Assembly: GCA_965644265.1 (NCBI GenBank)
Contig: OZ286476.1
Location: forward strand, 8,370,001-8,434,000
From: Glycera tridactyla
Lineage: Eukaryota
DNA length: 64,000 nucleotides
Direction: 5' to 3'
This document shows positions 34,056-63,346 of the stretch, piece after piece (position 1 is the first letter of the stretch; every line of letters starts with the position of its first letter). Both the position numbers and the translations under genes were made by a program. The notes under the pieces were generated by a model. The model ran no database searches, was not told where the DNA came from, and was given only the letters and a program-made list of their open reading frames with translations.

Positions 34056-34196
34056 AGTAGTACTATGTACAGATATAGCTTGATTTATGGCTTGACCGCT
34101 ATGATCGCTGCTGGATAGTTCGAGATTTGTCCACCAGGTGGCGGGATTTTATTTTTTTATTTGGTGTTGAATCAGTGGCGGATGGCGGAGGAAGTA
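34056..34196 (+). repeat. Left terminal inverted repeat (141 bp)
   Basis: AGTAGTACTATGTACAGATATAGC...GGCGGAGGAAGTA; exact reverse complement of 63206-63346 by base-by-base comparison. Confidence 0.97.
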
Positions 34197-34747: not shown

Positions 34748-34811
34748 GTGAAAACACATTATAACTGCACAGAATGATTAAGATCATTACTTCCTTTTTT
34801 ATCTTGTTGCC

Positions 34812-37483: not shown

Positions 37484-40400
37484 TTAATCAGGATCAGAGC
37501 GTAGCCTGACAGTTCTGGGAGTAATAATCTTCTTTGTGATTTTCTTCAAATGAGTTGAGGCACTGTCATTGACATTTCGCGGGTTCATTTGAGCAATTGC
37601 TAAATCTGTGACAGATTTTTGGTGATGTTCTCTATTTTCACTGTTTTCTGTCAGTGAGGGAATGGAACACTGTTCCTGTTTTGAGATCATCATGATAGCT
37701 TCACTGTCTTCAGTCAATGAGGGGCTTGGACATTGTTCCTCTTTTGAAATCATGAGAGGAGATTCATTCTCTTCACTGATTGAAGGCAAGGAGACCTGAA
37801 GTTGCTGTGAAGTCATCATGATGTCCCCCTGTGAGACTTTGTTTGAGTGATCAGGAACAGGAGAAGAAGAAGGTGAAATCATTGGGCAGTCAGCAAATCG
37901 ATTTGAGGATGACATCATCAGGCTCTCATCAGAGGTCTGCTCAGAGTGATGAGGAGGGGGGATGGAGATGGATATCATTGGGCAAACAGCAAATGGGTTA
38001 GTGGATGATATCATCATGCTCTCATGAGAGGTCTGACTTGAATGGTGATGAGGTGGTGGGGTGAGAGAAAACATTGGGTATTCAGCAAATGATCTTGAAC
38101 ATGAAATTTCATCAGGACAATTGGTTTGAGATGATGAAATCTCAGGTGAATATTCATTAATTTTCCCTGAATAATATTCATTCTTGAAAGTTGTTGATGA
38201 AGAGGATGAAATTGACTGTTTCAGTGATAAAGACTGATGAGATGAATCCATGTTTTTTGGATTGTTTGATGATTTATTTGGAATATCAGTACTTGTATGA
38301 TCATTCACTTCTGACCCATTCAGAGATGAAGGAGAAGACTTTGTCTTACTTTTACCATGGGTGGTATTTAGCCTATATCTGATCAACTCATCAATTTCAT
38401 CAAATTCCTGTTCACTTGTCTTGGTATGAATATCTGCCTTGACTGTAACTTGATTTCCAGCAAATGAGGACTGGGATAAAATTTCCTCAATGGAGGTAAT
38501 GAGTTCATCAGGATTCATATCTGATTTGTCTTCACAAGTAGCAACTGTTTTTTGAGCTGAGGGATGATTAGAAGGTGGACGGGGAGGGTGATGGGAAGGT
38601 GGAGGTGGAGTTGGAGAGGGAGAGTTTGTAGAAAGGGAAGAAGGAGATTTTCCACAGGTATTGTTCAAACTGAAAAATCTTGTGGACACTGATTTAGAAA
38701 CAGTGGCATTGTACGGAGTTGAGTGAATTGCTGGATTGAAACCTGACAGTTCCATTTCTTTTTTTTTCTGAGATTGATGAGCAGAATCTTTATGTGCAAT
38801 ACATGAGAGACTAGTATCAGGATGACTCATCATCATTTGATTGGAACAATTTTGAATAGACTTGGAAACATGAGGTTGCTGAGACATGAATTGAGAATCC
38901 CTCAATGAGGAAATGCATTCCTCTTTTGATGCTGTCAGATTTGCTGTTTGATATCCATCTTGATGTGAATCACCTGATGCTTGATCCAGCCCACCTGTTG
39001 CTTCATTATGATCACCTAATGCTTGTCCATCTGTTGCTTGTCTTAGAACAATGCCATGTTGATCACCATTTGACTGGAAGATAGACATAATAAAAGAAAT
39101 AATTTTCTATTGTTCAGTGTCATATTTTTACATGAAATATTCTGTATGTACTATGATTAGGTGGAATGATTGAATGATTTTCAGAGAATCTGAGAAAGAG
39201 AGGGATGATAAAATGATTTGGTTGAATGATTGAATGAATGATTGATTGAATGATTGAATGATTGATTGATTGAATGATTGATTGATTGATTGATTGATTG
39301 AATGAATGAGTGACATAATGAGAGAATGTGCAGGCAGAGCAAGTAACAGAAACAGAGATGACAATGAACAGGAAAAGACAGAAGTATATATAAAGGGNNN
39401 NNNNNNNNNNNNNNNNNNNNNNNNNNNNNNNNNNNNNNNNNNNNNNNNNNNNNNNNNNNNNNNNNNNNNNNNNNNNNNNNNNNNNNNNNNNNNNNNNNNN
39501 NNNNNNNNNNNNNNNNNNNNNNNNNNNNNNNNNNNNNNNNNNNNNNNNNNNNNNNNNNNNNNNNNNNNNNNACAGACAGTCTGAGAAACAGATGAGAAGT
39601 GGTAGACATGCAGACATTTTGATAACATCAGTCTCACCCTGTTTGAGGCTTGTGGATGAGGTTGAAGTCCATTTCCATCCAACACAGACCTCACTAAGGC
39701 ACAAGTGTTATTTATCTCACTGGATGATATGGCAAAGATTGGATTGGGATTCACCACAGTCCGGATAGATTCTCCATTAGATTCATGTTGAGCAGCAGAG
39801 GATTGGTCATGTTGAGGATTCCCTTGGGGATGTACATTTCCTAGCTCAATGTCAACAGGCATATGACCAAATCTTGTTCGGATTGCATTCAGAAATCTTG
39901 TCCCTGAAAATAAAAAACAAACAAATTCTCATACTTCATTTCAACAAATACTCAATATCTTGACTGATGATCACCATAAAGATCATACCAGAAATCAATC
40001 AGATATCATGGTATCAGAATTTTCAATTCAATAATTTTAATGCTCTTTCCAGGCTCTTTTCTAATGCTCATTCATGAGATGAGAAGAAAAAAAAGGATCA
40101 AAATTGATGAATTCTTAACAATAAGCCAATATGATTTGATATACCCAGTGTTTTCCATGGTCTATTCATTTTTGTTATTGAGACTGAGAGACAGTGTGAG
40201 TGAGTATGTGAGTGTCAGTGAGTGTGATTGATGGCAGTGAGAGAATGAATGAATGGATGAATGAATGAATGGATGGAAAATGAATTGATAAGTGATTTAT
40301 TAGATTGAATGATGAATGATTGATTGATTGATTGATTGATAGATTTGTATAGGTTAGACTATCTGAGGAAAATATGAGAAAAGACTTTTGGAATTCTTAC

Positions 40401-41340
40401 CAATCTTCATGAGGAGATACATCGTGAATGCAATAACAACAAAGGCAAGCATTCCAACAATGATTCCAATGATGTTAGTCATGGTTGTTCCCATCACTCC
40501 TGCTGAAGATGATGATATTCCAGGTAATTCAGGAAGTGTTGTAGGTACATTTGGCTCTTCAGGCGTAAATTGTCCAGTTGATGAGGTCGTTTGAGCTAGG
40601 TGAATGTCTTGTTCAGAGATGGTAGAAGTACCTTGGTCATCTGATACTGATTCAGGTGTCTCAATGAATGCTGATGATGACGGTGATTTGTCATTCGATA
40701 CTGCTGCTGATGGTGGAATAAGGGTTGAACCCGGCGAATGATGATCATTTGATGCAGGGTGAAGATTATCGAATGAGTGATAAGTGGGACTGGTATAAAC
40801 ATGATCTGTAGTCACCTCAATATCGGTGGTCACCTCATCACCGGTAGTCACGTCATCATCGGTAGTCAAATTATTATGGGTAGTTACCTGAATATCATCA
40901 GCTGATGTTGACATTCCAGGAGTGTGAGTGTATTCCTCGTAAATATAAGAGTAATCTGATGTGATGGAGCTAACCTGGTCATAGTTCAATGATGAAGCGA
41001 CAGATGGCGGTGATGAGGTTATTCCGTCTGCTGTCGACGATGACTTATTAGTCTGTCTATCGGCACCGATGTCCGAATATTTATCATCATCTTCTATCGG
41101 CGGAAGATCCTCACAGAACTTATAGTTCTTCCCCAGAACTGTCACGCACTCACACCACGGTTCATCCCAACATCGAGGCATTATTGATCCGGATTTCGCG
41201 TCTCCTGACAACATTCGATGTTTCACCGCGAGTGACCAATCTGGGCGTGATGCGTGAACCTGACGCGCATTGCTAAACAAATTCCCCTTTATTTCGATGT
41301 CAGAAAGTCGTAAATCGCATTGATAGGATTTCCAGATCAA
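37484..41340 (-). CDS. Multi-exon type I membrane glycoprotein (at least 931 aa); exons 41340-40401, 39903-39638, 39073-37484; first exon unresolved
   Basis: In-frame junctions G|GTAAGA (40400) to TTTTCAG (39904), phase 1, and AGG|GTGAGA (39637) to TTCCAG (39074), phase 0. Cys-containing N-domain, S/T mucin-like stalk, TM IIGIIVGMLAFVVIAFTMYLLM, long Ser/Pro-rich tail. Introns contain (TGAA/TGAT)n. Confidence 0.7.
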
Positions 41341-41540
41341 CTGAATGGTGTGGATCGCTTTACCTTATGTTAAACCACTTTGCTCACCCTTGGCACTCAG
41401 ATATGCACAAAATCCAAACTACTTCAGTGCATACCCTTCTGATAGCCAGTAGTATATAACATAACTATGGAGATCATGAATTTTTTTAAACATAAACAAA
41501 CAATTTTGTTCTGGTCAGTATACGTGACGTTTTATTTTTT

Positions 41541-41893: not shown

Positions 41894-42424
41894 TCATAGC
41901 AGACTGAGCACATAATTACAAAGGTCATATTCAGGGAAAGTCAACATCTCTTCAATGATATCACTGTCTTTTTTCCCTTCCAATAATTTCAACCCGTAAT
42001 AACAACAAATGAATCCACAGGTAGATGAATTGAAATGTTGTAATTTCAAAATGTTGAATGAATATAGAGCATTAATTGCATTCTTCATAATGAAAGACAT
42101 GATATGAACCCCATAGTGAGAAGGGGGTTTTCCCATGGGATCAAAGAAATATACATTTATTGGTAAGTTATCAGTCTTTACTGGCTTAGGTAGATGAATT
42201 AATACCCAATGTCTACCTGTATTAAAGTTACGTTCAGTGTTGATAACATACAAACTAGGTCTTTTTTTTACATAGACATGTGGAAGTTCATTGCTAGCAC
42301 AAACCTCCACACATTTAAATTTTTTCATACCATCATAATCACAAAGTATCTGCATGATATCACCAGACAGCATAACGTAATTATTCATGTTAGAGTTTTT
42401 ATGAAAGATTCTTTTTCTATCCAT
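41894..42424 (-). CDS. PRO: Adenain-like cysteine protease (maturation protease)
   Basis: YVINT...GRHWVLI (His), YFFDPMG (Asp), LQHFNSSTCGFIC (Gln, Cys); directly downstream of MCP. Confidence 0.95.
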   Translation of the reverse strand: MDRKRIFHKNSNMNNYVMLSGDIMQILCDYDGMKKFKCVEVCASNELPHVYVKKRPSLYVINTERNFNTGRHWVLIHLPKPVKTDNLPINVYFFDPMGKPPSHYGVHIMSFIMKNAINALYSFNILKLQHFNSSTCGFICCYYGLKLLEGKKDSDIIEEMLTFPEYDLCNYVLSLL

Positions 42425-43877
42425 CAACCTTTATATTTCGTGCAGAATCTACTCTCAATAGTGAATTGTAAGTGGCATATAGTATTACAGTAACTGATTC
42501 TGTAAGTTGAGATGCAAATTTAATATCAAGTTTACTTAATCCTATTGATTGAGGATTAACAAATGGCTCCCCTTGGACACCACCATCGAGATTGAACAGG
42601 TACATGCAGTATCCATTTTTATATTCACCTCTCATTATAGTTGTTATTTTCCTTGGCTTCCCTGTGGATGGAGGAGAAGAGAATGAATATAATGAATCAA
42701 ATGCCTCTAGAAATAGGTCATTATTATAATCTGGTTGAAAAGCTTGTGATGGCACACATGACCCATCAACTGTGAGGCAAAGATAGTTAAGATTGAAATT
42801 CTCAAAATTAAATGGGTTCCTATGGTAGGCTCCATTGAATGCCTCTGATGAGACAAAGGCAACTACTAGTCGTTTTGGTTGAGCTGTGAGAAACAAATTA
42901 TCTAATGGCCATTGAGACATTCCTGAGGGTATAGCTGCTGTCTTTATTTCTGTTCTTTCGAAAGGGTATAGAGCAGGTCCAGCTGATAATCCTGTATTGT
43001 GTCCTAGAAGCATGGCAGGTGAAGGTTTGATCATTGGTACCTTCAATGTAGCCTGCAATATCTCTACTTTGTATTCTCTAGGAGAAGAAGAAGAAGAAGA
43101 AGAAGAAGAAGGTGATGATGATGTATCATCTGTTTCTGTATCTGTGGTTCCTGTTGTTGCTGAGGATGAAGTAGAGGTGGAAGCAGTAGGTTGTGGTCTA
43201 ATCAGTCTGAATTCTTCTGAGTTCTGTGTGAGTTTCAATGTTAGCTGGACAGCATTGAGTAGTAAGCGTTCTTGTTTTGTTAGATCTAAATGAAGTTTAC
43301 CCATCAATTCTACCACATTAGAATTAGATGTGTATGCTCGACGTTGGAAAAAACCTGGATTCATAGTTGCATTTACTGAGGTTGTACTATCCATTCGCCC
43401 ACTTTCATCTTTAAAAAATAACCCCTCCTTGAGTTGACCATCGATATCACTCCAGTCACTTTCTAATAAAGTGTCCATTATACTTCTATATGCATATGCA
43501 GACCCTGAACTGTTTACAAGTTGTTGTTGTAAAAATAGATCGACTTGTTTGAACATAGATGCAACGGGATAGTTAACAAATCCAACAACCTCTGAAGCTG
43601 GAACATCAGTACCGTCGGTAGATGATATCTTAACCTTTAAGTATAAATTGATATTTTTTAAGTCAATATACATCAATGAATTAGGCATTATATTGAATTC
43701 TATTGGAGCTCCTTGTCTGATTTGAGCAATAGGTGAAAAGTTCATGATAATAGTCTTTTCTCTCGAAATGTCCCGTGGTGGTAATGTAAATAGTTCCCAT
43801 TCTGTGGTATATCCATATCTTGTGTCGACACCTGGAGGTGTTTCATCACCGGCAGCACCCGTAGTTTCCATCTCCAT
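42417..43877 (-). CDS. MCP: Major capsid protein, double jelly-roll (Polinton PY), 486 aa
   Basis: LFTLPP, APIEFNI, YIDLKNINLYLKVKI, NYPVASMFKQVDL, YAYRSIMDTLL, PKRLVVAFV, AFNGAYHRNPFNF are Polinton PY-family patterns; size and position fit. Confidence 0.92.
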   Translation of the reverse strand: MEMETTGAAGDETPPGVDTRYGYTTEWELFTLPPRDISREKTIIMNFSPIAQIRQGAPIEFNIMPNSLMYIDLKNINLYLKVKISSTDGTDVPASEVVGFVNYPVASMFKQVDLFLQQQLVNSSGSAYAYRSIMDTLLESDWSDIDGQLKEGLFFKDESGRMDSTTSVNATMNPGFFQRRAYTSNSNVVELMGKLHLDLTKQERLLLNAVQLTLKLTQNSEEFRLIRPQPTASTSTSSSATTGTTDTETDDTSSSPSSSSSSSSSPREYKVEILQATLKVPMIKPSPAMLLGHNTGLSAGPALYPFERTEIKTAAIPSGMSQWPLDNLFLTAQPKRLVVAFVSSEAFNGAYHRNPFNFENFNLNYLCLTVDGSCVPSQAFQPDYNNDLFLEAFDSLYSFSSPPSTGKPRKITTIMRGEYKNGYCMYLFNLDGGVQGEPFVNPQSIGLSKLDIKFASQLTESVTVILYATYNSLLRVDSARNIKVDG

Positions 43878-43888
43878 GATAATATGAG

Positions 43889-44272
43889 TTAGAATACTGG
43901 TTTACGTCCTTTTCGCGATGAGGAACTGTGTTTTTTCTTCCCACGTTTAACCTTGAATGTTTTTCTCTTCTTTGTAATTCCTGAAGGTCTCACTCTCCGA
44001 GTAGGTCGTTTTCGCCTTCGTGATTTGCGAGATTTACGTCCTCTCCTATGTCCGACTCCAACAATGTCTGCTGCTTGTTCAACAGCGGCCATGGCTGGGG
44101 AAATTGAAACAATCTCTCCTGGTTTGGCTGATGATGATGATGATGATGAATGATGTTTTCCACCTATCTTTCCAACAATTGTAAATCCAGAGGAATATGG
44201 TATATGTCCTTTTGATTGAGCATCAAAATGACGCTCAAATTGACCTACTTGTCCTTGACTCCAGGAGGCCAT
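43889..44272 (-). CDS. Small Arg/Lys-rich basic protein, putative DNA-condensing core protein (127 aa)
   Basis: C-terminal half RRGRKSRKSRRRKRPTRRVRPSGITKKRKTFKVKRGKKK; lies between mCP and MCP. Confidence 0.65.
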   Translation of the reverse strand: MASWSQGQVGQFERHFDAQSKGHIPYSSGFTIVGKIGGKHHSSSSSSSAKPGEIVSISPAMAAVEQAADIVGVGHRRGRKSRKSRRRKRPTRRVRPSGITKKRKTFKVKRGKKKHSSSSRKGRKPVF

Positions 44273-46552: not shown

Positions 46553-47197
46553 TTAACTCATGTAACACAGTATGTTCAGCTCTGTTAAAAGAGAAGAAAT
46601 AATATTTAAATATTTGAGACTATCTTTGAGACCTGTGATAACAATACTTCCAGATCTAAATATCAGAAAGGAAACTGACCCTTTCTTCACTGGTATAGCC
46701 TGTAAAATTTCTGGTTCATATTGAGCCTGAAACATTGAAATAATATTATTAAAACAATCTGCTGATAGCTTAGGGAACTTGACCACAGCAGATATAGCTT
46801 GAACTGAAATCCTATTTAGCATTACAAGTATACCCTTCCTTTGAAGGAGGCGACAAAATTTCCTAACATTCAGCCTTCCTTCTTCAATTGTCCTGTTACC
46901 ATTAACTGATATATATCCTGATTGGAAAATCAAAGCAGTAGGTCTTCCTTTACCTATAGATTGATGTCTCAGTATAGCACAATTCATTCTTCTTGGATTA
47001 TATTCAATATTCACAAAAACCCTTGTGATATGCTTGATGTCTATCGTACACCCTACCCTTGTAGCACATAAAACATTTGTACAGCATACCTCAAGGTCAG
47101 AGTTCAATCCACAGCTTACGAAGCTTTTTCCTTCGTTCTTGAAGTCCATCCATCTTTTTCTTGGTGATGCTTCTTCGTCTCTTGGTGACATTACCAT
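46553..47197 (-). CDS. TBP: TATA-binding-protein (TBP) homologue, divergent, intronless (~214 aa from ATG 47197)
   Basis: Both TBP repeats are recognisable: NVLCATRVGCTIDIKHI..NIEYNPRRMNCAILR..TALIFQSGYISVNG..EEGRLNVRKFCRLLQRKG and AQYEPEILQAI..SFLIFRSGSIVITGLK; compare TBP NIVSTVNLGCKLDL..NAEYNPKRFAAVIMR..TALIFSSGKMVCTG..YEPELFPGL..LLIFVSGKVVLTGAK. Confidence 0.92.
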   Translation of the reverse strand: MVMSPRDEEASPRKRWMDFKNEGKSFVSCGLNSDLEVCCTNVLCATRVGCTIDIKHITRVFVNIEYNPRRMNCAILRHQSIGKGRPTALIFQSGYISVNGNRTIEEGRLNVRKFCRLLQRKGILVMLNRISVQAISAVVKFPKLSADCFNNIISMFQAQYEPEILQAIPVKKGSVSFLIFRSGSIVITGLKDSLKYLNIISSLLTELNILCYMS

Positions 47198-47522
47198 CAG
47201 TATTCTTGGAATCAGGTAAGACTTTATGATTGATGGTAGAGGTATCGTTTGGTTTCTGAAGATCTGATGACTCAGTTGTAATAGTATTATCACTATTGTC
47301 CATGTATCTATGATCATGAGAGCTTGGTGAAGACTCAGGCTCAGGTTTTAAATCTTGTTGCATGTGTTCACTGTCTGGCTGCTCTGCATCATGTGATTTG
47401 TTTGATGGCTGATGGGAGTCATATAAACCAGCACTATCAACAAGACTGTCATCCATCATTTCGCTATTCAGAAAGCCTTCAAGCTTTCCTGATGGTACAA
47501 GGAAATACTCCTTGATTTTCAT
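47097..47522 (-). CDS. Hypothetical protein (~141 aa), possibly a reduced PZ-like protein
   Basis: ATG 47522 overlaps the upstream stop (ATGA); starts MKIKEYFLVP and ends RKLWIEL, with a disordered middle. Confidence 0.5.
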   Translation of the reverse strand: MKIKEYFLVPSGKLEGFLNSEMMDDSLVDSAGLYDSHQPSNKSHDAEQPDSEHMQQDLKPEPESSPSSHDHRYMDNSDNTITTESSDLQKPNDTSTINHKVLPDSKNTDGNVTKRRRSITKKKMDGLQERRKKLRKLWIEL

Positions 47523-49135: not shown

Positions 49136-49355
49136 TATTGCTCCTCTACAATGATTATAATTTTATATGTAGAAACACCATACAATGCAAACCTGTCACA
49201 TCATCTATACACCAGAAAAACTGAGTAAGCTATATGACTGTAAAGATTTCATAGCTTTTCTATCAGGAAGATAGCTATGTAATCACTACTATTATATAGC
49301 TTCCTATCAGCATGAATCAATGAAAAACTAGCTGATTATATGCAATGCACCCTAC

Positions 49356-52300
49356 TCAATATCCTATTGGATGTGAAGTCAGGTCTGGATGAAACACACG
49401 TTTGTCACTCGTCAAGCCATACCTCTTAATTTGATGTTTGGTGTTGACTGTCATTGACCGTTTTATTCGAAATATATGAGCATTTGAGACTTCAACCTCA
49501 AGACCATATTTCAGTGGACACTGACTTTCATTGTCATTATCATTGTCATTAAAGTCTGGTTCACATTGACTATCGATGGACCTAGAAATCCGATTACCAT
49601 ACTCTGTAACCATCGATTTCATAACAGATAAATTCATGTGGTTTGCTGCTTCCATACTCAACGTGAAACCCTTATACTTCATCACAGTGTCATTGTTCGA
49701 TAGAACATATCCATAACTCTTTGGGCCAGATGAAAAAAACGTGGTTATGTGAGTTCCTTCAGGTATTTCTGAGGTGAGGTCACCCAGATATGGACCCAAT
49801 GGAAGACAGTGGTCAGGAGAATCAGCTCTATAAATCAATGAGTCCGTATCACAGTACATGGCACGTCTCCCACAACTGTCAACTAGTGAATATAGGTGCA
49901 TCCTACCATAAGCAGTAATAAATGCTGCTAAAATGACATTATCTGTGGGACCTGAATGTAAAGTCTCTCCCCGATTGGAATATTCTAGAAGTAATGTATC
50001 CGGGTCCATTATGTTGAAATCAGTGATATCTGAACGCACATCAGACATAATATCATATAAGGCACTAGGATTCTGACTGTTTACTATCTTTGTTTTAGAT
50101 TTTCCCACTCTTTGCGCCAACTTACCGTACATGGCATTAAGAAGAAGCTTAGCCATCGTCCTTTTAGATGAGTTATATTCCATCTTTTCATCATCTAACT
50201 GTACTCCTTCAACCTTAAAAAAATTTTCAATAAATTCTTGTTTTTGTTGAGGAGATTGACAATGCGATGGGAAACCAGTGCTCTCTGTCTTAATCTTGAG
50301 AAATAAATTAACATACTCCTGAAAGAAATTGCAATTTTCACCTGTAAATGAGTCCAAAGTGTTTTCTGTGGTAGCATCGAAATGATAAACTTCATGCACT
50401 TTTTGAACTTTATATCCCTTTGATCTTGCTAGTTGAATTTCAGGTGTCACCCATGTACCAGTTAAGGCTCGTTGATGCTCTGAGCAATCACAGAAACGTT
50501 GGGGTTCAGGTAATTCAGAACATGATCGACATAGAACAAAAAGCAACTTATTCCGAGCTCTTGATGGTAATACAGGAAGGTCCAATGTCCTGGGAGGGAT
50601 GATGGTAATTTTTGCTACACCAAAATAGCTCTCCAATGTCAGATCAAATCCACCCTGAATTATATCTGAAGTCATTACTTCAGGGTGACCCACTGGAAAT
50701 ACCTGATTTTTCATGATCCAAGGGTACAAGGATGTAACATCAACGTACTCTACACGTGGATATTGTACCCCATTGACAATGACTGGAGGGTTGACATTTT
50801 CATCCTCAGTGTATCCCATTTGGAAAACCTCCACCCTCCCTCCATAATAACCATCTCTAGGATCAAGGGGGTCTTCATAATCAAATACAGAATTGACAAT
50901 TATTTCAACTAATGGATCATATTTCATTAAAGTACGAAATTCATGTTCCCACATAACCCGGACTACATATCCCATATCAATTAGTGATTGCTCAACATCT
51001 ACTGTATTTTGATATATTTCATTGAATGTCCGTTTTGTTCTTTGGCACTGTATGCGATCTCTACTAAAAGGAAAACACTGAGGACATGCATGGAACCAAC
51101 ATCCATGAAAATAGAATATTGTGTCTCCTAATACTGGAATATGAACAATTGGTTTCAGAGGCAAAGGTCGGTTATCTCCAGTCATAAAACCATCAGCGTA
51201 CACAACTCTTCCATCTCGCAATCGAATTCCCACCTCAGACCAATTTCCTGAATGATATAAGTGGATAGATTCTGATTGAGAGACATAGGTAAGCCATTGT
51301 AAGGATATCTTACTTGAGCCATGAAGATAAGACCTGTATCCTCCAGGTGGGACACGTGCCATGTCAGTTGAAATGAAATGTTTCCTATCTATAGAATATC
51401 CATTGGGTAAGTTTTCATTCGAGACCATTCCATTTCCATCTAGTAAATCTATCTTAACCTTTCCTCCTCTCTGTACTGCAGGATAGCTAATCGAAAGATT
51501 AATGTCTGGTCTAGCTTCATACATGGGATCAAGTTTTAAAGAGAGTCTGATTTTCTCAGAAATGAACTTTGATTGATAAATTCTCATCGCAAGATTAGCC
51601 AATGTAATTGACTTTTCATATGGGTCTATTTCAGTTAGCTGTTTAACAATTTGCTTGAATTTCAAACAAGTCAAACGAAGGATGGTTACATCATTCTCAC
51701 AGTATGAAATCAATTCATCATAAAAGTTGAATATTTCATTATTCTGTATCTTTTCAGAGTGCCATTCCAAGAACCTTTGAGCAACCTCTGGTTTCATGGA
51801 TGAAACACCATAAAATTTCACATCTGGATAAGGACCAATATAATTTTGATTTGATGCAATATTAAAAAAATGAGGAAAATACCCTTTGCATATAGCAGTG
51901 CTGATCTCATTAGAATCTTCATCCTCAGTGTTCATCAATCCAAAAGCAGATGGCAAAGAACTAAGAGGGAAAGGTAAAAACTTGTAATTATCAACAAACC
52001 TCAAAGCAATGGGATCTTTTAGTTCCATGAATATCAACTTTGTTCCAGCAAAGATAACATCTGCTGGTTGAATATTTCTTTTCTGAAGAAGTTCTTGTAA
52101 AACCAATATATGATCGAACCCACTCCCATTATGAGAAATAATTGTTGCCCCGTCATGTTGAGGTTTTAATAACCAATCCGTGAATTTCAACAAACTGTCA
52201 TCCCCATAAAATATGTGCTGCCTGATTCCACATGAACTATCTCTACAACATTTTTTTTGATTGAAGTCCCTCGCAGGTTTCTTTTTGGATTTTAGTTTAC

Positions 52301-54383
52301 ACCTCATGCTACACCTATCACCGCACCTATCACATTCTATATGTGCACCAAATGGTAAATCGGAACAGTCATCACATATTTTTTGCGCCACCACCAAGGT
52401 TGCCTTATGCTGAGAGCTACCACAAGATGATGAATTGCAATGCAAACATCGTGAGCAATTGGAGCAGGGTGATGGCTGGAATTTACACTTATCACAACGA
52501 ACAGGAGGAAGAATGTTTCCTTTATCACACTCATATTTGGAATCTTGTGAGGTCTCTATGTCAAAGAAAATGATTAGATGATCTCTCTGACATAAAAGGA
52601 TTGGACTAACAAGACTTTTTGATCTAATATAGCATTCATGCCTCTCTAAAAAGTAGCTTTCACATTTTGAGCAATAATACTCTCCACATTCATGAAGAGA
52701 ACGAGGACGTTTCTTAGATTCCATGACCTTCTTACACCTGACACACATCCACCACTTTATACAATAGTCATCTTTGTGCAAAAAAAAACATGTCATGTTA
52801 CCAAAGTATGAGGTACATGCCAAACAAGAGAGAAGAGGACCTTCAATCTCATTTCCCTTGCAATAATTCGATTGACACTTGATACATTTTGGACCTGAAC
52901 AACACACAGTACTGTTATTCCGTTTTGGCTTGCAACATTCTTCACAAATGGACCTCTGATCAAAGAAGGCATTTAATTTAGTTATAGCGTCATAATGACA
53001 AGGAGATAAGATATCACCTGGATCAATACGATGGTGATAGACATATACTTTCACCCAACCCATTTCTTTAGCATGATCAGAAGGTTTCCTAACAAATCGA
53101 TTTCCTCCAAGTTGAGATATAACATAAACACCACATTCCAATACATGCTCAATTCTCTCAATGTCACCTAATGTAATTTCGGATTGGTCACTTAAATCAG
53201 CCTCCTCAAGTAATTTAGCTAAGGCCCTATCTTGAATTCTCCCTCTCCATTCCCTAATGGACTTATATACCTGAGGTGAGGTTTTACGGATTCGAAAAGC
53301 TGTGCAAAGATAATCATTGTCATTTTCAGTCTTTTCTTGCTCAAATTTCTCTCTTGTAATCTGCACAGCATATGCCCAAGATACAATTATTGCTCGTGGT
53401 AGGCATGTTTTATCACCTTCATTTCTTATACGAACTAAGCTACGCTTTGAATATAATGAGTCCAAATCGTCATTTACTAAGGATAGGGTTTTTCTACCAA
53501 GACCACTTCCTGTAATAGCTCTCAAAATGCATACAGAAATAAAAAAAGTCCTATCAATTCTAACCTCCTTCTTTGATTGAAGAACTACTGAAATTCTATT
53601 CAATATGCCATTAACATCAAGGTTTTTGAACAGATCAACTGGAATGCATATGGGACTATCAAGAAATTCTTGATCGATAACGATTTTAACATAATCATCT
53701 GCTCGACATGATGAACTGATACCTTCTAATATCTTCTCAAATATCTTTCTTATGATATCTTCAACATCAACAATAGTGACAGGAGATAATGAAGATATGA
53801 ATCCCTGCTGAGGTATAATTTTGAACAAAGTACCATTGACAAGGTCACCATGAAAGGGATCATATGACATTCTATGTACATGAAAGAGATCCCTGTTTTC
53901 ATCTGCCAAACGGTCATATATACCATCAAATTGATCAGAAGTTGAATGAGGGACAGCATTGGGTATACTAGGAGAGGTAGATGTTGAAATTTGAGAAGGT
54001 GAGGCATCTTCAAGAGGTTGAGGTAAGGGCAAACGGCTCAATTCAGTCTCAGGTACTGCTGAATCAGTAATTATCCTATTCGTAGGTGATGAAATGAGGT
54101 CACTGTGTATCAGTTCATGTGGTACATGAGTATTAGATATTGACAATGGAGACATGAATATATTTCCATGCTGTTGATCCTGATGATCAGCGTGGAGTAC
54201 CTGACCTCCACTAGATCGAAGATTATATGTTGATCTCACCACATCCTTTTGAGATTTTTTTCTTTTATCACGTGAGCGTGACTGGTATAACTGATGAGGT
54301 TTCCGTTTCCTCAATACTCTGCGAGATGATGGTCTTGACCCTCTACCTCGCCCCACTTGTTGTCTTGAAGAAAACCAAGATGC
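49356..54383 (-). CDS. POLB: Protein-primed family B DNA polymerase (with N-terminal terminal-protein region); last exon 54383-49356, 1675 aa
   Basis: Exo I FFDIET, Exo II HNGSGFD, Exo III YCENDV, polymerase motifs YVDVTSLYP, KLLLNAMYGK, YCDTDS, GPKSYG; Vsr-like insert DGF...FHGCWFHAC. The ORF has no ATG at its start and begins at acceptor TTTGTTTCAG (54384). Confidence 0.98.
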   Translation of the reverse strand, partial: ASWFSSRQQVGRGRGSRPSSRRVLRKRKPHQLYQSRSRDKRKKSQKDVVRSTYNLRSSGGQVLHADHQDQQHGNIFMSPLSISNTHVPHELIHSDLISSPTNRIITDSAVPETELSRLPLPQPLEDASPSQISTSTSPSIPNAVPHSTSDQFDGIYDRLADENRDLFHVHRMSYDPFHGDLVNGTLFKIIPQQGFISSLSPVTIVDVEDIIRKIFEKILEGISSSCRADDYVKIVIDQEFLDSPICIPVDLFKNLDVNGILNRISVVLQSKKEVRIDRTFFISVCILRAITGSGLGRKTLSLVNDDLDSLYSKRSLVRIRNEGDKTCLPRAIIVSWAYAVQITREKFEQEKTENDNDYLCTAFRIRKTSPQVYKSIREWRGRIQDRALAKLLEEADLSDQSEITLGDIERIEHVLECGVYVISQLGGNRFVRKPSDHAKEMGWVKVYVYHHRIDPGDILSPCHYDAITKLNAFFDQRSICEECCKPKRNNSTVCCSGPKCIKCQSNYCKGNEIEGPLLSCLACTSYFGNMTCFFLHKDDYCIKWWMCVRCKKVMESKKRPRSLHECGEYYCSKCESYFLERHECYIRSKSLVSPILLCQRDHLIIFFDIETSQDSKYECDKGNILPPVRCDKCKFQPSPCSNCSRCLHCNSSSCGSSQHKATLVVAQKICDDCSDLPFGAHIECDRCGDRCSMRCKLKSKKKPARDFNQKKCCRDSSCGIRQHIFYGDDSLLKFTDWLLKPQHDGATIISHNGSGFDHILVLQELLQKRNIQPADVIFAGTKLIFMELKDPIALRFVDNYKFLPFPLSSLPSAFGLMNTEDEDSNEISTAICKGYFPHFFNIASNQNYIGPYPDVKFYGVSSMKPEVAQRFLEWHSEKIQNNEIFNFYDELISYCENDVTILRLTCLKFKQIVKQLTEIDPYEKSITLANLAMRIYQSKFISEKIRLSLKLDPMYEARPDINLSISYPAVQRGGKVKIDLLDGNGMVSNENLPNGYSIDRKHFISTDMARVPPGGYRSYLHGSSKISLQWLTYVSQSESIHLYHSGNWSEVGIRLRDGRVVYADGFMTGDNRPLPLKPIVHIPVLGDTIFYFHGCWFHACPQCFPFSRDRIQCQRTKRTFNEIYQNTVDVEQSLIDMGYVVRVMWEHEFRTLMKYDPLVEIIVNSVFDYEDPLDPRDGYYGGRVEVFQMGYTEDENVNPPVIVNGVQYPRVEYVDVTSLYPWIMKNQVFPVGHPEVMTSDIIQGGFDLTLESYFGVAKITIIPPRTLDLPVLPSRARNKLLFVLCRSCSELPEPQRFCDCSEHQRALTGTWVTPEIQLARSKGYKVQKVHEVYHFDATTENTLDSFTGENCNFFQEYVNLFLKIKTESTGFPSHCQSPQQKQEFIENFFKVEGVQLDDEKMEYNSSKRTMAKLLLNAMYGKLAQRVGKSKTKIVNSQNPSALYDIMSDVRSDITDFNIMDPDTLLLEYSNRGETLHSGPTDNVILAAFITAYGRMHLYSLVDSCGRRAMYCDTDSLIYRADSPDHCLPLGPYLGDLTSEIPEGTHITTFFSSGPKSYGYVLSNNDTVMKYKGFTLSMEAANHMNLSVMKSMVTEYGNRISRSIDSQCEPDFNDNDNDNESQCPLKYGLEVEVSNAHIFRIKRSMTVNTKHQIKRYGLTSDKRVFHPDLTSHPIGY

Positions 54384-54717
54384 CTGAAACAAATGTACTC
54401 AATATACACTAGTTGTCATGAATGGGAATCAACCAAAAACATTGACAGATAATATAGTGATGATGCAATGTAAATGACAATGACAACAACGACAACAACA
54501 AGAACAACAACGATGATGACGATGGAGAGAGAAATGATCAGGAGACGACGGCAACGCTAAAGGCAATAATGAGATGAGATAACAATGATGACAAAAACAA
54601 CAACAACAAAATTGAAAAAAAGATAAATTTCCATGGGAATGATGTCATAGAAGAAATCAATATTGACGTCACACTGACAAGAATCAGCGATCATGTCAAC
54701 AACAAAAGATGTATATA

Positions 54718-57700
54718 TTAATTATTTAAAATTGGTTCAAATACCTGATGTGAATGATTCGTCTCCTTATGCTGCAATAATTTCTCAATGGATGTGTAGC
54801 GAGCGGAATTTCTCTCTGTCTCGGTTTTTGCTTGCAAAAGGCAGGTATAACAACATACCATCATTACATTGGAATCAGTATCTGGCTCTTTGTGCTTAAC
54901 AATGTCCTTATTCAATAGGAACTTGGTCACTCTCTCATCAGTATGTTTCTCATCCTCGTCACTCACCTCATTGTCCTCAGCTTCATCGTCAGCATCATTA
55001 TCATAGTCAATGTCAGAATACCCCTTATTTTGTTCATTTATCTCATCATCATCATCATCACTACTTTCACCATTACCACATTCACCTCCCCCACTGCCAC
55101 CGCACCTGTCATCACCACCATCACTACCTTCACCTTGACTATCATTATCATTTNNNNNNNNNNNNNNNNNNNNNNNNNNNNNNNNNNNNNNNNNNNNNNN
55201 NNNNNNNNNNNNNNNNNNNNNNNNNNNNNNNNNNNNNNNNNNNNNNNNNNNNNNNNNNNNNNNNNNNNNNNNNNNNNNNNNNNNNNNNNNNNNNNNNNNN
55301 NNNNNNTCATTACCATAACATGAAACAGGGACATAATTTGACTGGAAAGAATTTACATCATTAATTTGATGAGCAGTACTATTGACATCATGGATATTTT
55401 CCTTTACACTAAGTACATTGTCATTTTTGAATGTGACTGATGATACACTAACTCTTCGATTAATATGAGGTGACAATACAGGAGATGAAGAAGGAGTGAC
55501 AAGAATTTCTGAAATTGAATGATTGATTTGTCTTGGAGAACAATCAAACACAGGAGAACAAAGATAATCCTGCATGGGGACTGAAACAACATCTTGACTA
55601 TTCAATTCAAACCCACTTTTAAACGGTGATATATCAACATTTGAAATATTCCTGTCAATTCTTTTATGCTCATTATCCATATTGTTATCATTACCTTGAC
55701 CATTGCTATCGTCATTGTCATCATTACCTTCACCATTGCTGTCGTCATTGTCATCATTACCTTGACCATTGCTGTCGTCATCGTCATCATTACCTTCACC
55801 ATTGCTGTCGTCATCGTCATCATTACCTTCACCATTGCTGTCGTCATCGTCATCATTACCTTCACCATTGCTGTCGTCGTCATCGTCATCACCACCACCA
55901 CCACCGCCACTGTCACCACCACCAGCGCCGCTGTNNNNNNNNNNNNNNNNNNNNNNNNNNNNNNNNNNNNNNNNNNNNNNNNNNNNNNNNNNNNNNNNNN
56001 NNNNNNNNNNNNNNNNNNNNNNNNNNNNNNNNNNNNNNNNNNNNNNNNNNNNNNNNNNNNNNNNNNNNCCATCACATTTGATATTTCTGACCATGGATCT
56101 GATATCAATCCTGCTACATATATTACGAAATTTCTTCTGTACAGATTTCAAGTCATAGATAGGAACAGATACAAGACTATTAGCAGATGATACCTTGGAA
56201 TCAACATTACCTTCATTTTCAGCACTGATACAAGAAATAACAGTATCATCATTAGTAAGATCTATAACATCATTATGTTCACCATTTATGATTACATTTG
56301 GATTTGACAGAGGTGAGAAGCAAGGAAAAGAAGATTCAGATGAGAGATTCCCATTTCCAGGACAATGACTAGGAAAAATAAAGGTAGAAGGATCTGAATT
56401 ATCCGTTCCGTAATGTGAAGCTTGGAGGAGAGCATGCTTTTCAACAGAAGGAGATACACACCTGATGTGACTTGACGATGTAGTGGGTTTATCAACCATT
56501 GTTCTCCTATCAGGTACGTCAGCTGCGGAAATAGAGACATCCTGTGGTCTTGTCTCCCCATAAACATCACTAGATGGTAGTTTTCTGGATGGTGTATTTC
56601 TGGACCGAGATAGCTTTGAACGTGAGTGATGTTTGCGTTCCTTCGACAGAGGTATTTCTGGTATCCCGGGTACAGTTTTTGTCTGAGACAAATGTCCATT
56701 CAATGAAGATCGAGAAGAAATATTTCCTCCCTTGTTATCGGCTGAAACATAACTTGACGACGAAGACATGGGAACATTACTCCCATGGATGACTGAAGAA
56801 CATATGGTAGCAGATACTGATTGTGGAACAATCTCAGCAGAAGAGTGATCGTTAGCAGAGGACAATACTGGTGAGACTCTCATGAGATGAAATCCAGGAT
56901 ATGGAGATATATGGGTATATTTTGAATCATATGATCCGGATATATGATGACCACTAGTTTTATCAGGACAATTCACATGAGAAGGTAGAAAAGTGGGAGT
57001 ATCATTCGCATAATTCGTTCCTGACTGAAAGTCCAAAGTCAAAGGATTATCAGATGCTGTCACTGGAGGAGTATCCAAGTGCATTGTGCGAGTCTGAGAG
57101 AGGTCCAGACCGACTGACAAACAAGAAGGAACAGATGCACTAGGTTGACTATCATATGTGGAACGTACATCCGCATCAGACATTATCGAGTGAGATACAT
57201 TCCGGAGTTGATCAAAAACACCTGATCTAACACTGGTGGAGCAAGGTGAGTGATCTCTCAAATTGTCCCTAATATATTCACCAACATCAGCTGATGTCTT
57301 CTGAAATGTCTCTAGTGAATCATTGGTCGATTGTCTATGTCTATATCCATGGATTTGATCAGAAGTATCATAATCAGACTTTATGATATTCTGATCAATG
57401 AGTAAATTTCCCGAAGACAATTGATCACCTTGGCTTTTTGGTATAGGCACACTTGATGATGGGGTGATAGACACAGTAGAATGATAAGATTCATTCTTCT
57501 GTTCTGAAGGTAATATACTTCTATTGTCCAAAAATGACACTCTCCGTTTCTTTGAACGATGCAAAGCTTCATGATTGTGTGAAATTACAGAGTCTTTCCC
57601 ACATGGAGGGATGGAAGGTGCATTGCTACAAGTGCTTGTTTTTGCTGATTTACCAGCAGAGCGAATACATACAGTTTGAGTGTGATGATCATGATGACGG

Positions 57701-57826
57701 ACTGATGGACATGAATGCATATTGTGAGCATCTGCTGATGAGGAGCGCTTACGTTTCTCTCGAAGTACAGATTTCATAACATGACCAACAGTGTTAAGTG
57801 CTTTTACTAGTCTACGACACACACGC
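54718..57826 (-). CDS. Ser-rich/acidic low-complexity ORF (~1030 aa across two N-gaps); probable upstream exon of POLB
   Basis: Acceptor TTTCATTTCAG at 57827; donor CAG|GTATTT at 54744 in phase 0, matching the POLB acceptor; VIDLT motif; atypical C-x2-C-x23-H-x4-H; frame continuity across the gaps is unverified. Confidence 0.6.
55689..55890 (-). repeat. 33-bp coding tandem repeat x6 (NGEGNDDDDDS)
   Basis: Units start at 55689, 55722, 55755, 55788, 55821 and 55854. Confidence 0.92.
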
Positions 57827-57922
57827 CTGAAATGAAAGAAAGAAAAAAAGTTCTATTTTGTTCAATCGCACCAATCATTTCACATTGACTTTCATTATTC
57901 GCATCTTAGTGATTCATAATCG

Positions 57923-58040
57923 TCATTGTCTGAATTATCGTCTCAGTCAACGTCAAAGTCATTATCTGAATCATCGTCTCAGTCAACGTCAAAGTCATTA
58001 TCTGAATCATCGTCTCAGTCAACGTCACAGTCATTATCTA
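57923..58040. repeat. 36-bp tandem repeat x3 plus partial copy
   Basis: TCATTATCTGAATCATCGTCTCAGTCAACGTCAAAG starts at 57923, 57959, 57995 and 58031. Confidence 0.9.
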
Positions 58041-58335
58041 ATTTGACGTCAGATTAATTGCCAGAGTCTTCGTCGATACCATTCATGTTCACAGTCATCG
58101 TCACATTCATCACCTCTCAGCAGTAGGGTCATCATCATCATCATCATCTTCTCAGCAGCAGGGTCATCATCACCTCCACCTTCACCTTTACTACCGACTG
58201 CTCACTATCATTTCCATCACTTACATCATCAAACATCACCACCGTCATCATCACCATGACTACACTCAACAGGGTGGACCTCGAACATGAACAGAAAATG
58301 AGGGAGATACAAATAATATTGTCATGTCCACTTAC

Positions 58336-58591
58336 ATTCCGTAACGAATAGTTGAGTCCGAATTATCCTTCTCCTTGTGGTTACAAGATAAACAACGCTG
58401 CCTTGAACTGGTTACATTATGATCCATCATATGTTTTCTAGATGTACTATCCACTGCAGCTGTATCCCCTATGATGTTAGGTAGAGACAAATTTGGTACA
58501 TTCCGTCTGGTGATGGAGTCAGGTTTTGAAGTGTCATCTACAGTTTCATCATGATCATCATTCTCCCATGATGATATATCACTCACTCCAT
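58336..58591 (-). CDS. Internal exon upstream of the 1030-aa ORF
   Basis: Donor AT|GTAAGT at 58335 (phase 2) matches acceptor 57827 (phase 2); acceptor TATATTCAG at 58592. Confidence 0.5.
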
Positions 58592-58840
58592 CTGAATATA
58601 CAGTCAGCTCTTAGTTCATATGTTGTGTTGATGATATATGTATATCGATATATTCCTACTTTTAAACCCCTTCTAATCTAAGCTCGTATACTATCCTTAG
58701 CATGAAATTATTCTTGAAAGTGACCTCATTCCTAAATCTAGACCCTATATGAGAGGTTATATGAGTCATATGTTATCTATCGATTATATATTTCTTCTAA
58801 GAAGCTACCCTATCATATAAGTAAACATGATTTTGCCAAT

Positions 58841-59416
58841 TTAGGAAACACACCTAATGCAGGCCTCAGCGGATTTTACTAACCACTGCCTGATATCTCG
58901 ATACTGACCATCAAAAAGGTCACAAGGATCACACAATAGTCGCCAAAATAACTTCTCCCAATAACGAGAAGGAACAGGGGAAAAATAAGCATCCTTATCT
59001 ACTTCTTCAAGTTGCTTCTGAAGCATTGCTTGAGCTTCCAGGACCACAAACTTCGAAAAGGTCATATGATATCTGCAAGTATATTCTGTATCCACACATT
59101 CGCAATCAAACAATTTTATCGGATCCATAAGCCAAAAGTCTTCAATCGCCATTCTAACATACTGAGGGGCTTGAAGTACTATTCCCTTCTGTTCAGATAA
59201 TGATATGATTCGCCCTAGTATAGAACACAGTTCAGTTGTAACACAGTCCTCAGCAATGGAGATTAGAACCAAATGAGGAGGATGGGGGCCAGCGTTGCCT
59301 GAATCGGTATCTGGCTTAAACCAGTCTACAATAAGGAAAATAATAACACAGGCTTTAATGAGATAAGTAACCATGAGGTCATATCTCAATATCATGATCA
59401 ACAAAATCATATGCAT
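58841..59416 (-). CDS. Hypothetical protein/exon (191-aa ORF; likely starts at acceptor TTATTGTAG)
   Basis: Protein-like helical composition; no recognisable family. Confidence 0.45.
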   Translation of the reverse strand: MHMILLIMILRYDLMVTYLIKACVIIFLIVDWFKPDTDSGNAGPHPPHLVLISIAEDCVTTELCSILGRIISLSEQKGIVLQAPQYVRMAIEDFWLMDPIKLFDCECVDTEYTCRYHMTFSKFVVLEAQAMLQKQLEEVDKDAYFSPVPSRYWEKLFWRLLCDPCDLFDGQYRDIRQWLVKSAEACIRCVS

Positions 59417-60125
59417 GATTGCTATGGTCAGGATCCTCAGTCAGTAAATCATCAGGTTCAAATTCTTCTTCGAGGAATGAAATTTCTGGACTGTCATGAA
59501 CTTCAGGACAATAATCAGTGACATAAAGGTAATCAAGGTCACTGATATAACCATCATCTAATCGACCGTCATGAACGTTTTCAAGACCATCGTCTTCAGC
59601 ATCATCCAGAGAAATATCATGAATGTAACGATCATCAATTTCATTTGTACTGACTGTGTCATTATCATTGACATTCGTTGCATGATCACTTATACCCATA
59701 TTCTGACATTCAGGTCGAAAGCAATCATGACATATGTTCATTGAACATGAAGCATTGTCAAAAAAATGACGATGACGATGACGATGATGATTCATACTAC
59801 TTTCTGGATGTACAAGACATCTATCTCTCATTACATCAACAGTATATTCAAAAGTATTACCATGACGTGAGGATATCTCATTAAATGATACTCTAGAATT
59901 GATATCTTGTGAACTATCTATCAAATTATATCTGACATTACATGATAGAGATATTATCAATTCTGACTCAGATGGAGATGTCACTGAACCAGAGGTCTCT
60001 GTAAGTTTCGTCTGCGTTTTCGTAATCATCCTCCTCCTCATCGTCGCTAGAAACATGAAGAAAAAGGAATGCCCTAACATAGTCCTCATTCTCGAAACCA
60101 GAGGTTGCAAACTGGTAGAAATCAT
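59379..60125 (-). CDS. Hypothetical acidic protein/exon with His/Cys cluster (248-aa ORF)
   Basis: HHRHRHRH..CSMNICHDCFRPEC then an Asp/Glu-rich tail; overlaps neighbouring ORFs in other frames, so the structure is unresolved. Confidence 0.4.
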   Translation of the reverse strand: MISTSLQPLVSRMRTMLGHSFFFMFLATMRRRMITKTQTKLTETSGSVTSPSESELIISLSCNVRYNLIDSSQDINSRVSFNEISSRHGNTFEYTVDVMRDRCLVHPESSMNHHRHRHRHFFDNASCSMNICHDCFRPECQNMGISDHATNVNDNDTVSTNEIDDRYIHDISLDDAEDDGLENVHDGRLDDGYISDLDYLYVTDYCPEVHDSPEISFLEEEFEPDDLLTEDPDHSNHAYDFVDHDIEI

Positions 60126-61768
60126 CCTTATTGAATCGTATCAAAGACCTGACTGTTTTTCTCAGTCGAGAATATGGTATATAGCTTTTTTGAAATACAA
60201 TCTTATGAAGTGTGATGTACACCATCTGATAATGATCACATGTCCTAGCAAGATGTTTGAAAGGACGTGATAAATATCTGGGAAGTTTAGATCTAACATC
60301 TTTCATCAGATCTACCAACAGGTCATTTCCTTCAGAGGGGCTCAAATATCTATCATTCATTACTGAATTGACTACACAATTTTCTCGATGAAGACCAAGA
60401 TGATCAATAAGCATTTGCATTGCTTTAGTGAAATAGTACTCTTCATTTCCCTCAGTTATATCCCAATCAGCAAGATCTAGTACTACTTCCATAAATGTCA
60501 TATACTGTGAAGTTAGAGCATCCAAACAAATTTGCTCTATGGCTGTGTACAGATGGTCAACTCCGGCATTTACTGCAACAACACAATCAGCAAAGAATTA
60601 CTCTATGACTTTCCGATCAAATGTGTGGGTACAGATATATTCTTTCAGTCTGATAAAAGTATATTGATCAAGCTACTCATCAAACAAGCTGGCCAAATTA
60701 TCATCTGCATATATATCATCATCATCAAAAAACTCAAACCCCTTTGTCACCAAAGATTTTTCCTGACATTTCAGTCTCCCCATCTGCTGAAATACGATTT
60801 GGACATTTGATCTTGCCAAGCTGAGCAAATTTTGATGCTCAATTCGGTCAGTCATGACCAATACCCAAACAACATGGCCATGGATAAGGAGAGCTGGATT
60901 GAAGCTCAAACGGACAGGCGGGTCCTCAAGCTGAAGTCTAGCCAACAGTAAACCTTGCACTCGACTACAAATTGTGTCTACATAATCTATACCATCTCTC
61001 ATTATAGGCATCACAGAAGCATCTTTCTGTAACATACGCTCAACTGGGTGTGAATTGATCACAGCCAAAGCACTTTGAACAAAACCCAGAGGGGAGCGAT
61101 CAAATTTTCCGAGACCCTGAGCAGTACACAACATCGAGTTGACAAGATTAAGTATGACGCCGTTGATCTCTCTTAAAGTGACAGAAGATACCAATTGACG
61201 TAATCTAGATGGTGTAATGTGAGGAAGATCGCTGTCGTCACTTGAAGATATATCTTCAAAACTAGGGATATTTCGCAGAAAGTCTCGTGTGGTCGCCGCT
61301 TCGTCTAGGGAAACCAGTCCAAAGCACTCTAGATTGCACAAGATGCAAATTTTATGAAACAGAAGAAAAGGAAATAATCCCTTTTAAATAATACTGATAT
61401 AAGCTCATATAGATAAAAAATCAAATATTTCAGATTATGTGTATTGCCTTCTCAATTCCTAAATGACAAGTAATATTTTCCATCATCATCTTTGAAGTGA
61501 AGATATTTCTTGAGCCTCATATCAATAGAGCACCTTTTCATATATTTCACTCACCAGAGAATTCGTCATTTGCACATGCTGATGCATTTCCATTCTCCTT
61601 TGATGCATCAGATGATGATCCACCCGAGGAAGGAGGATCAGAAGCGGTGGAAGCTCCTTCAGCAGAGGGGGGATCTGCTTCAGAAGAGGTAGCTCCTTCT
61701 GCATTCGAAATTTCATCTCCCAAGCCATTATCAGGAGGGACAGGCACTGCTCCATTGGTAGCATCCAT
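59968..61768 (-). CDS. Right-end spliced accessory gene: exon 61768-61555, exon from 61328; short form stops at 60673 (289 aa); frame continues to 59968
   Basis: Donor CTG|GTGAGT (61554, phase 1) joins acceptor AATCTAG (61329, phase 1) in frame; the 222-aa and 185-aa ORFs share one frame separated by TAG 60675-60673 and TAA 60600-60598. Confidence 0.55.
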
Positions 61769-63205: not shown

Positions 63206-63346
63206 TACTTCCTCCGCCATCCGCCACTGATTCAACACCAAATAAAAAAATAAAATCCCGCCACCTGGTGGACAAATCTCGAACTATCCAGCAGCGATCA
63301 TAGCGGTCAAGCCATAAATCAAGCTATATCTGTACATAGTACTACT
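63206..63346 (-). repeat. Right terminal inverted repeat (141 bp)
   Basis: Exact reverse complement of 34056-34196. Confidence 0.97.

Follow-up and report, generated by a model that had tools for sequence, protein, structure and literature searches.

The PolB reading frame of a Maverick/Polinton in Glycera tridactyla is, with a probability that we put at about 0.78, the last of four exons encoding a 2,859-residue precursor, from which a long leader is predicted to be removed by the element's own protease at a QxGxG site. In order, the precursor would comprise a leader predicted at 1,184 residues ahead of E3, the terminal protein, the vOTU and the polymerase. All positions refer to the window, the whole 64,000-nucleotide stretch analysed here. 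The splice sites, their phases and the open frames are present in the window and conserved across related lineages, and we consider it likely that host splicing joins E0, E1, E2 and E3, arranged as follows (a slash marks the exon boundary in splice sites):

61555-61768, minus strand: E0, predicted first coding exon, 214 nt, with an ATG and a phase-1 donor G/GTGAGT
58336-58591, minus strand: E1, 256-nt predicted internal exon, entered in phase 1 and left in phase 2
57827-58335, minus strand: intron 1, 509 nt, GT-AG, phase 2 at both ends
54745-57826, minus strand: E2, 3,082 nt, Ser/acid-rich leader exon with two N runs
54384-54744, minus strand: intron 2, 361 nt, GT-AG, phase 0 at both ends
49356-54383, minus strand: E3, pPolB exon, 1,675 codons, comprising linker, terminal protein, vOTU, exonuclease and palm

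The initial annotation had proposed PolB as the last exon of a spliced polyprotein of ~2,800 aa beginning at 58591. Its size range holds, with 2,859 aa the better figure once a fourth, ATG-bearing exon further upstream is included. Its 5' end does not: a phase-1 acceptor ends with base 58592, and the ATG at 58591, which is in another frame, runs into a stop two codons on, so we rejected that start codon, and the three-exon chain E1-E3 (2,788 codons) is left without a 5' start. E0 has its ATG in good context and contributes 71 acidic/Ser-rich codons; a direct splice from E0 to PolB was rejected as out of frame. Both proposed junctions are as described. Intron 1 has the donor AAT/GTAAGT at 58335 and the acceptor TTTCAG ending at 57827, with matching phases; intron 2 has the donor CAG/GTATTT starting at 54744 and the acceptor TTTGTTTCAG ending at 54384, with the length and phase claimed. 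Intron 2 contains stops in all three frames; the term microsatellite-like applies to ~100 nt in its middle and not to the rest. The PolB ORF indeed lacks a starting ATG, its first in-frame Met being codon 82 of the stop-to-stop ORF (54155), 77 codons past the acceptor and in weak context. In the window 287 bases of E2 are N, and in the sequence immediately flanking each N run, on either side, the leader frame is the only stop-free frame. As for a spliced polyprotein as such, comparison across lineages supports it well, whereas its central junction does not appear in the putative RNA contigs.

The chain lies in an intact 29.3-kb Maverick/Polinton (contig label G000:C47, in a genome of 2.04 Gb), of which three features are needed here:

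34056-34196: left TIR, beginning AGTAGT, with a perfect 6-bp TSD outside
63206-63346: right TIR, identical to the left TIR
41894-42430, minus strand: adenain-like protease gene, PF00770 (Peptidase_C5) E 0.0034, below the curated cut-off, with fitting position and order

The element has the TIRs beginning AGT and 6-bp TSD of a Maverick, a protein-primed PolB (PF03175, E 6.4e-34) whose catalytic motifs were located, and a retrovirus-like integrase (PF00665, E 1.9e-13). The candidate packaging ATPase (Pox_A32, E 6.5e-4) scores below the curated cut-off and fits by position and order. The ORF at 42417-43901 has no Pfam match; we take it, by size, place and motifs, to be the double jelly-roll major capsid protein candidate. 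The ORFs of the element are open. Its family is single-copy in the genome, where the nearest relative is a decayed array of ~80% identity (G000:C28:18627000-18656000, L001-L004) with PolB 5' pieces in inverted and tandem ~4.8-kb units.

We note several further features of the element and its flank. A TBP-like gene with two repeats (46553-47347, minus strand; PF00352, E 3.8e-21) lies between integrase and ATPase. Between the minor and major capsid candidates is a small, very basic, core-protein-like ORF (43889-44272, minus strand), which begins with residues similar to the opening ones of the PolB exon. A 540-codon Ser-rich ORF (37484-39928, minus strand), with another ORF and a repeat-rich spacer ahead of it, may be a second spliced gene. 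The ORF at 40354-41364 (minus strand) is membrane-glycoprotein-like, with a Cys-containing N-terminal part, a Thr/Ser-rich stalk and a C-terminal hydrophobic stretch, and has no Pfam match. The acidic ORF adjoining the left TIR (34782-35450, plus strand) contains PLDLS at 35178-35192, which we take to be the CtBP-binding type motif of adenovirus E1A; the leader of L047, a relative introduced below, also has a PLDLS motif, at about 670-685. The 226-codon ORF at 35768-36448 (plus strand) has no Pfam match and presumably resembles a PC4-type ssDNA-binding protein. In the flank, a reverse-transcriptase-like fragment (2880-3437, minus strand) is presumably from a host LINE.

Within E3 (minus strand), the terminal protein begins at about 53891, and the vOTU Cys and His lie near 53405 and 52997, both invariant in all 11 compared. 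A model of the terminal protein and vOTU reached pLDDT 75; its best Foldseek rows were OTU (E 1.2e-3, prob 0.98) and Dpo4, with no row under E 1e-3. An insertion near 51200 has no Pfam match and, we presume, resembles the VSR nuclease domain of pPolB2 (Jeong et al.). A terminal-protein-like alpha/beta domain followed by an OTU fold with Cys and His is the layout of Krupovic et al. 2024 (PMC11071308), and our weak matches agree with the PolB N-terminal model given in the available part of that paper, which matches OTU and Y-family polymerases.

A protein search for relatives, in which 144 of 250 candidates were scored, yielded 149 matches. The matched families lie at about 62, 51, 49, 37 and 32% identity, which makes a comparative test possible; no relative turned up in the viral contigs searched. 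For the comparison we took the 10 kb lying upstream in each of 27 further copies. A phase-0 AG/GT donor stands at the homologous place in 23/23 copies from nine lineages of this one genome, the window's included, in a table that leaves out copies C1b and C17b and three own-ATG families. In these lineages the donor ends a long low-complexity ORF, directly after the finger in 8/9; after another 217-543 nt comes the phase-0 acceptor that starts the PolB ORF, followed in one copy by a 5-nt deletion. All nine lineages also have the phase-2 intron and, as first exon, one that bears a Met and ends in a phase-1 donor; E1's phase-1 acceptor could be located in eight, with a likely site in the ninth. 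A metagenome-collection contig 47% identical in the TP-vOTU region (L047) has the finger, the donor, an 86-nt intron and the acceptor, and the PolB acceptor is also present in L048. The counts are not independent trials, given that the lineages are related, that splice anchors were selected visually and that acceptors were scored ad hoc.

Indels keep the frame in 25 of 26 cases in E2 versus 7 of 34 in the introns (distinct indels in five families, leaving out copy C10a for E1 and intron 1, where it is misaligned; Fisher P 1.5e-9). The dN/dS of E2 is 0.47 for the most diverged pair and 0.18-0.74 over the 14 pairs with changes. From the indel frame pattern and dN/dS together, we conclude that E2 is coding and the spacers are not. 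Intron length varies by non-multiples of three, yet donor and acceptor phases keep matching among lineages 37-66% identical in the terminal-protein region, and read-through beyond the donor is unrelated among lineages, running for 1-61 codons. In L015, L023, L027 and L033 the introns hold long microsatellites and 151-, 255- and 315-bp tandem repeats, and the exons stay open. In three distant families (L038-L043) a strong ATG follows the PolB acceptor at 6 nt, the conserved upstream donor lies in non-coding DNA, and a separate C2H2-finger ORF is found further upstream. A quick PolB tree, midpoint-drawn and unrooted, places each layout on its own side of a well-supported branch. Judged on sequence, the conserved gene structure is taken to be real.

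Directly behind the PolB acceptor lies a candidate release site for the leader, and a second site of this type lies further into E3:

54345-54359, minus strand: QVGRG, predicted adenain-type leader-release site, nine residues into E3
53502-53516, minus strand: ITGSG, a further site of adenain type, placed after the terminal protein and ahead of the vOTU

The adenain rule is (M/I/L)XGG/X or (M/I/L)XGX/G, Gln is tolerated at P4, and the enzyme cuts pTP at QRGF/G, according to the available text of PMC4246237. A [QH]xG(G/xG) motif stands at residue 6-21 past the acceptor in 9/9 lineages, and also in L047 and L048 (11/11), with a background of 1 in 6,872 leader residues; in 10/11 lineages it precedes the first Met of the exon. 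The earlier suggestion that the leader is cleaved off gains support from this conserved, predicted site. The element's adenain-like protease would probably cut at QxGxG, and it is fairly likely that the leader is a precursor part removed at maturation, comparable to the removed part of adenovirus pTP. Distant homologs comprise 152 proteins, 58 of them with at least 60 residues before the terminal protein; the site occurs in 30 of these 58 versus 2.6 expected from shuffles, and in 11 of the 58 the finger pattern, site and terminal protein stand in one database protein sequence. Because distant homologs join them, these three look like one inherited polypeptide that is intron-interrupted here. 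Leaders longer than ~460 residues were absent among the 150 best database protein matches, and searches spanning up to 2,000 and 2,932 residues found no long annotated fusion protein.

The leader exon has the composition and motifs initially reported: it is Ser-rich and acidic (S 16%, D+E 15% in E2), with 5.8 copies of a 33-bp repeat, VIDLT at 56254-56268 (minus strand) and a CxxC..H..H finger at 54754-54852 (minus strand). About half of the window's E2 is scored disordered, with a conserved N-terminal helix motif; in the eight lineages measured, E2 has 772-1,027 codons, 55-85% scored disordered, and the parts common by blastp are the first helix, a mid island and the finger only. The finger ends just before the donor in L047 as in the 8/9 lineages above, and its ligands are kept in eight lineages. 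Its spacer is 21-22 residues versus 12 in classical C2H2, and no Pfam family passes (best zf-C2H2_4, E 0.26, in one of three fingers scanned). VIDLT is identical to the SIM of PIAS1 given in the consulted part of PMC4907222. Conservation of the SIM across all lineages was rejected, since xIDLT is kept in 3/8 scanned, namely the window's and two sisters of one subclade. The four scanned lineages of the other subclade carry CRNLF/CKNLF, which we liken to the cyclin-docking RNLFGP of p27 (PMC4381256, as far as its text was available), and the window's E2 has no LxCxE. Such motif swapping between subclades would fit a docking scaffold but does not by itself point to the replication compartments initially suggested. 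Drawing on NLS-like, SIM-like and cyclin-docking-like short motifs and one finger, the leader before cleavage might serve as a rapidly evolving scaffold for nuclear docking, bringing the primer-polymerase into structures of the host nucleus, a reading that we regard as rather doubtful.

The RNA-type data are three low-share runs from one study that are only presumed to be RNA. Their contigs have no cover across 54744/54384 or 58335/57827, and neither junction was seen in them, which given the missing cover speaks neither for nor against the junctions. One putative RNA contig, at depth 2.5, carries a different splice:

54831-56461, minus strand: alternative intron, 1,631 nt, GT-AG

If the run is RNA, this joint means that the leader region is transcribed and spliced on the minus strand. 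The splice shifts the frame to a stop at 54787-54785, 40 nt ahead of the main donor, giving a 626-codon leader-only product with no polymerase. Its donor at 56461 is kept in the decayed relative on C28, and another putative RNA contig crosses the donor unspliced. Because AATAAA occurs in intron 2 of 3/9 lineages, leader-only mRNAs are possible; no conserved poly(A) signal was found after E2 or the helical ORFs described below. Contigs of run X1 over 49324-52807, at depth 5-11, are ~87-89% identical to PolB and point to a sister family absent from the assembly search. X1 also skips 72 nt at 53135/53208, but with ends of TT..TC, and this was taken as a deletion in a relative, not a splice.

We weighed three other explanations. 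There may be two genes, E0-E1-E2 encoding a stand-alone disordered finger protein and PolB having its own transcript, with an internal or intron ATG (Met77 here). In the E0-E1-E2 transcript intron 2 would be retained or polyadenylated, which the AATAAA signals would fit; the 54744/54384 junction missing from the putative RNA contigs would suit this arrangement too, as would the outgroup families, in which a strong, conserved ATG follows the PolB acceptor at 6 nt. All lineages carry an in-frame ATG ahead of the terminal protein, in the exon or the last intron-2 codons; in 5/9 lineages one lies in the 3' end of intron 2 versus 1.7 expected, and intron 2 is open in the PolB frame in one lineage (shuffle P 0.005). 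These ATGs, however, range from ~200 codons before to 161 after the acceptor and share no position. Within the exon, the first Met falls at codons 4, 16, 26, 56, 77, 122, 132, 161, 178, 205 and 362 past the acceptor in the 11 lineages, and inside or past the terminal-protein domain in 3/10 lineages with the domain start placed. Initiation at the first exon Met would also leave the cleavage-type site untranslated in 10/11 lineages. Donor and acceptor phases match despite the non-multiple-of-three shifts in intron length, and finger, site and terminal protein occur together within single sequences of distant homologs. We judge two separate genes to be improbable.

The PolB acceptor might also be fed by a short unseen upstream exon, phase-0 or non-coding, which would add no more than a few residues to the polymerase, the long leader then being a separate isoform. 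E2 is unusually long for an internal exon, which we count in favour of this arrangement; it has a precedent in adenovirus E2B, the outgroup families here look alike, and one putative RNA contig has E2 alternatively spliced. The donor of the only conserved ATG exon found, however, is phase 1 and does not match the frame of the PolB acceptor, and the conserved phase-0 donor at the end of E2 would be left without a partner; a short feeding exon thus seems distinctly improbable. Chance splice-like sites in a decaying element, for which one could cite the single-copy family and the commonness of AG/GT at K/Q-V dipeptides (17/51; in-frame AG/GTR stands at 21 of 6,845 codon boundaries in leader ORFs), are very improbable and largely refuted by identical TIRs, a perfect TSD, open ORFs and, at 37-66% identity between lineages in the terminal-protein region, the repeated occurrence of the splice sites, their phases and the indel pattern.

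In the four-exon reading, E0 is separated from E1 by an interval that holds one to four ORFs across lineages, and four in the window:

60673-61304, minus strand: helical ORF A, phase-1 acceptor at 61304 and a second at 61328; predicted alternative E0 product
59968-60572, minus strand: helical ORF B, behind a phase-1 acceptor
59379-60046, minus strand: acidic ORF C, behind a phase-1 acceptor
58841-59325, minus strand: helical ORF D, behind a phase-1 acceptor, with an invariant C-x-C...C..H

Of 21 helical ORFs, 16 have as their best near-start acceptor one that is open and of phase 1, by a crude score and among related lineages, including 4/4 such ORFs in the window's element; E0 therefore likely serves five acceptors. 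We think that E0 is probably a shared start exon whose phase-1 donor chooses among them, four leading to small helical or acidic proteins and the farthest to the polymerase. Host splicing to the near acceptors would give small accessory proteins, and to the far one the replicase precursor. The farthest-acceptor route would keep the polymerase scarce, and the frame-shifting splice inside E2 would likewise limit it. ORF D is modelled confidently as all-helical (pLDDT 88) with four invariant Cys/His, and had no match in Pfam, PDB sequences, protein clusters, Foldseek PDB or BFVD; paralogy among the helical ORFs is weak (hhalign probability 15.6 and 2.4). The whole could amount to an adenovirus-grade splicing programme, in which one start exon and five acceptors yield either accessory proteins or a ~2,900-residue replicase precursor. 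The kilo-residue disordered head of that precursor would attach to the nuclear machinery of the host and be removed by the virion protease at QxGG, a site shared among Polinton polymerases and seemingly not described before. We advance this combined picture tentatively, at a little short of even odds.

Mavericks are annotated as intron-free ORF sets, and elements with apparent introns are treated as eroded. In the accessible portions of the respective sources, intact vertebrate Mavericks are without introns (PMC8097293), nematode Mavericks have intron-free core genes and cargo genes with introns (bioRxiv 2022.07.12.499685), and cryptophyte PLVs have group I introns only (PMC12220804). Intron-free core genes, a trait of vertebrate and nematode elements that does not define the group, do not seem to be present here, given the conserved GT-AG sites and the indels. 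The adintovirus paper (Starrett et al. 2021, PMC8502044) leaves splicing unmentioned in its available text and calls the ORFs upstream of PolB 'Oncoid'; the available parts of the nematode pPolB paper, a 2026 preprint and PMC5803895 contain nothing on spliced polymerases. No paper on a spliced Maverick polymerase was found among the openly accessible papers searched. If our reading is true, existing annotations of the polymerase gene fall a third short throughout entire invertebrate lineages, and upstream 'accessory' ORFs are exons of one transcription unit. The conserved site would be the first testable substrate for the Maverick protease, of interest because Maverick particles are unseen so far. 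The precursor-plus-protease logic of adenovirus pTP would also have a counterpart in the adenoviruses' presumed source group.

Among known systems, the Maverick/Polinton pPolB of Krupovic et al. (PMC11071308) has the same TP-vOTU-EXO-PALM layout; its available text describes two globular N-terminal domains and vOTU cleavage, and neither a spliced kilo-residue leader nor a QxGG site before the terminal protein. Such elements, including the adintoviruses of PMC8502044 with their 'Oncoid' region, share with this one the TIR, TSD and integrase and a variable accessory-ORF region upstream of PolB; the weakly matched ATPase and protease would be further common genes. Distant PolB homologs (P0067, P0039, P0008, P0096 and others) have a C2H2-type finger, QxGG/QxGxG and terminal protein as here, but differ in their unspliced or short finger leaders of at most ~460 residues. 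The initial comparison with adenovirus holds for splicing and for precursor cleavage, and not for scale, since few short exons are joined there rather than a 3-kb exon. The exon added to adenovirus pTP and Pol is tiny. In adenovirus E2B, pTP and Pol mRNAs share common 5' exons with a different junction to the terminal exon, so that N-termini are spliced from shared upstream exons to alternative acceptors (PMC11304566, available part), much as proposed here, and the viral protease processes the pTP precursor, there too at a site with Gln at P4 (PMC4246237, likewise in part). Adenoviridae have separate pTP and Pol genes, an inactive vOTU and no integrase, none of which applies to this element. 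There, terminal protein and polymerase are separate proteins; here, an integrated element would encode one precursor of leader, terminal protein, intact-looking vOTU and polymerase.
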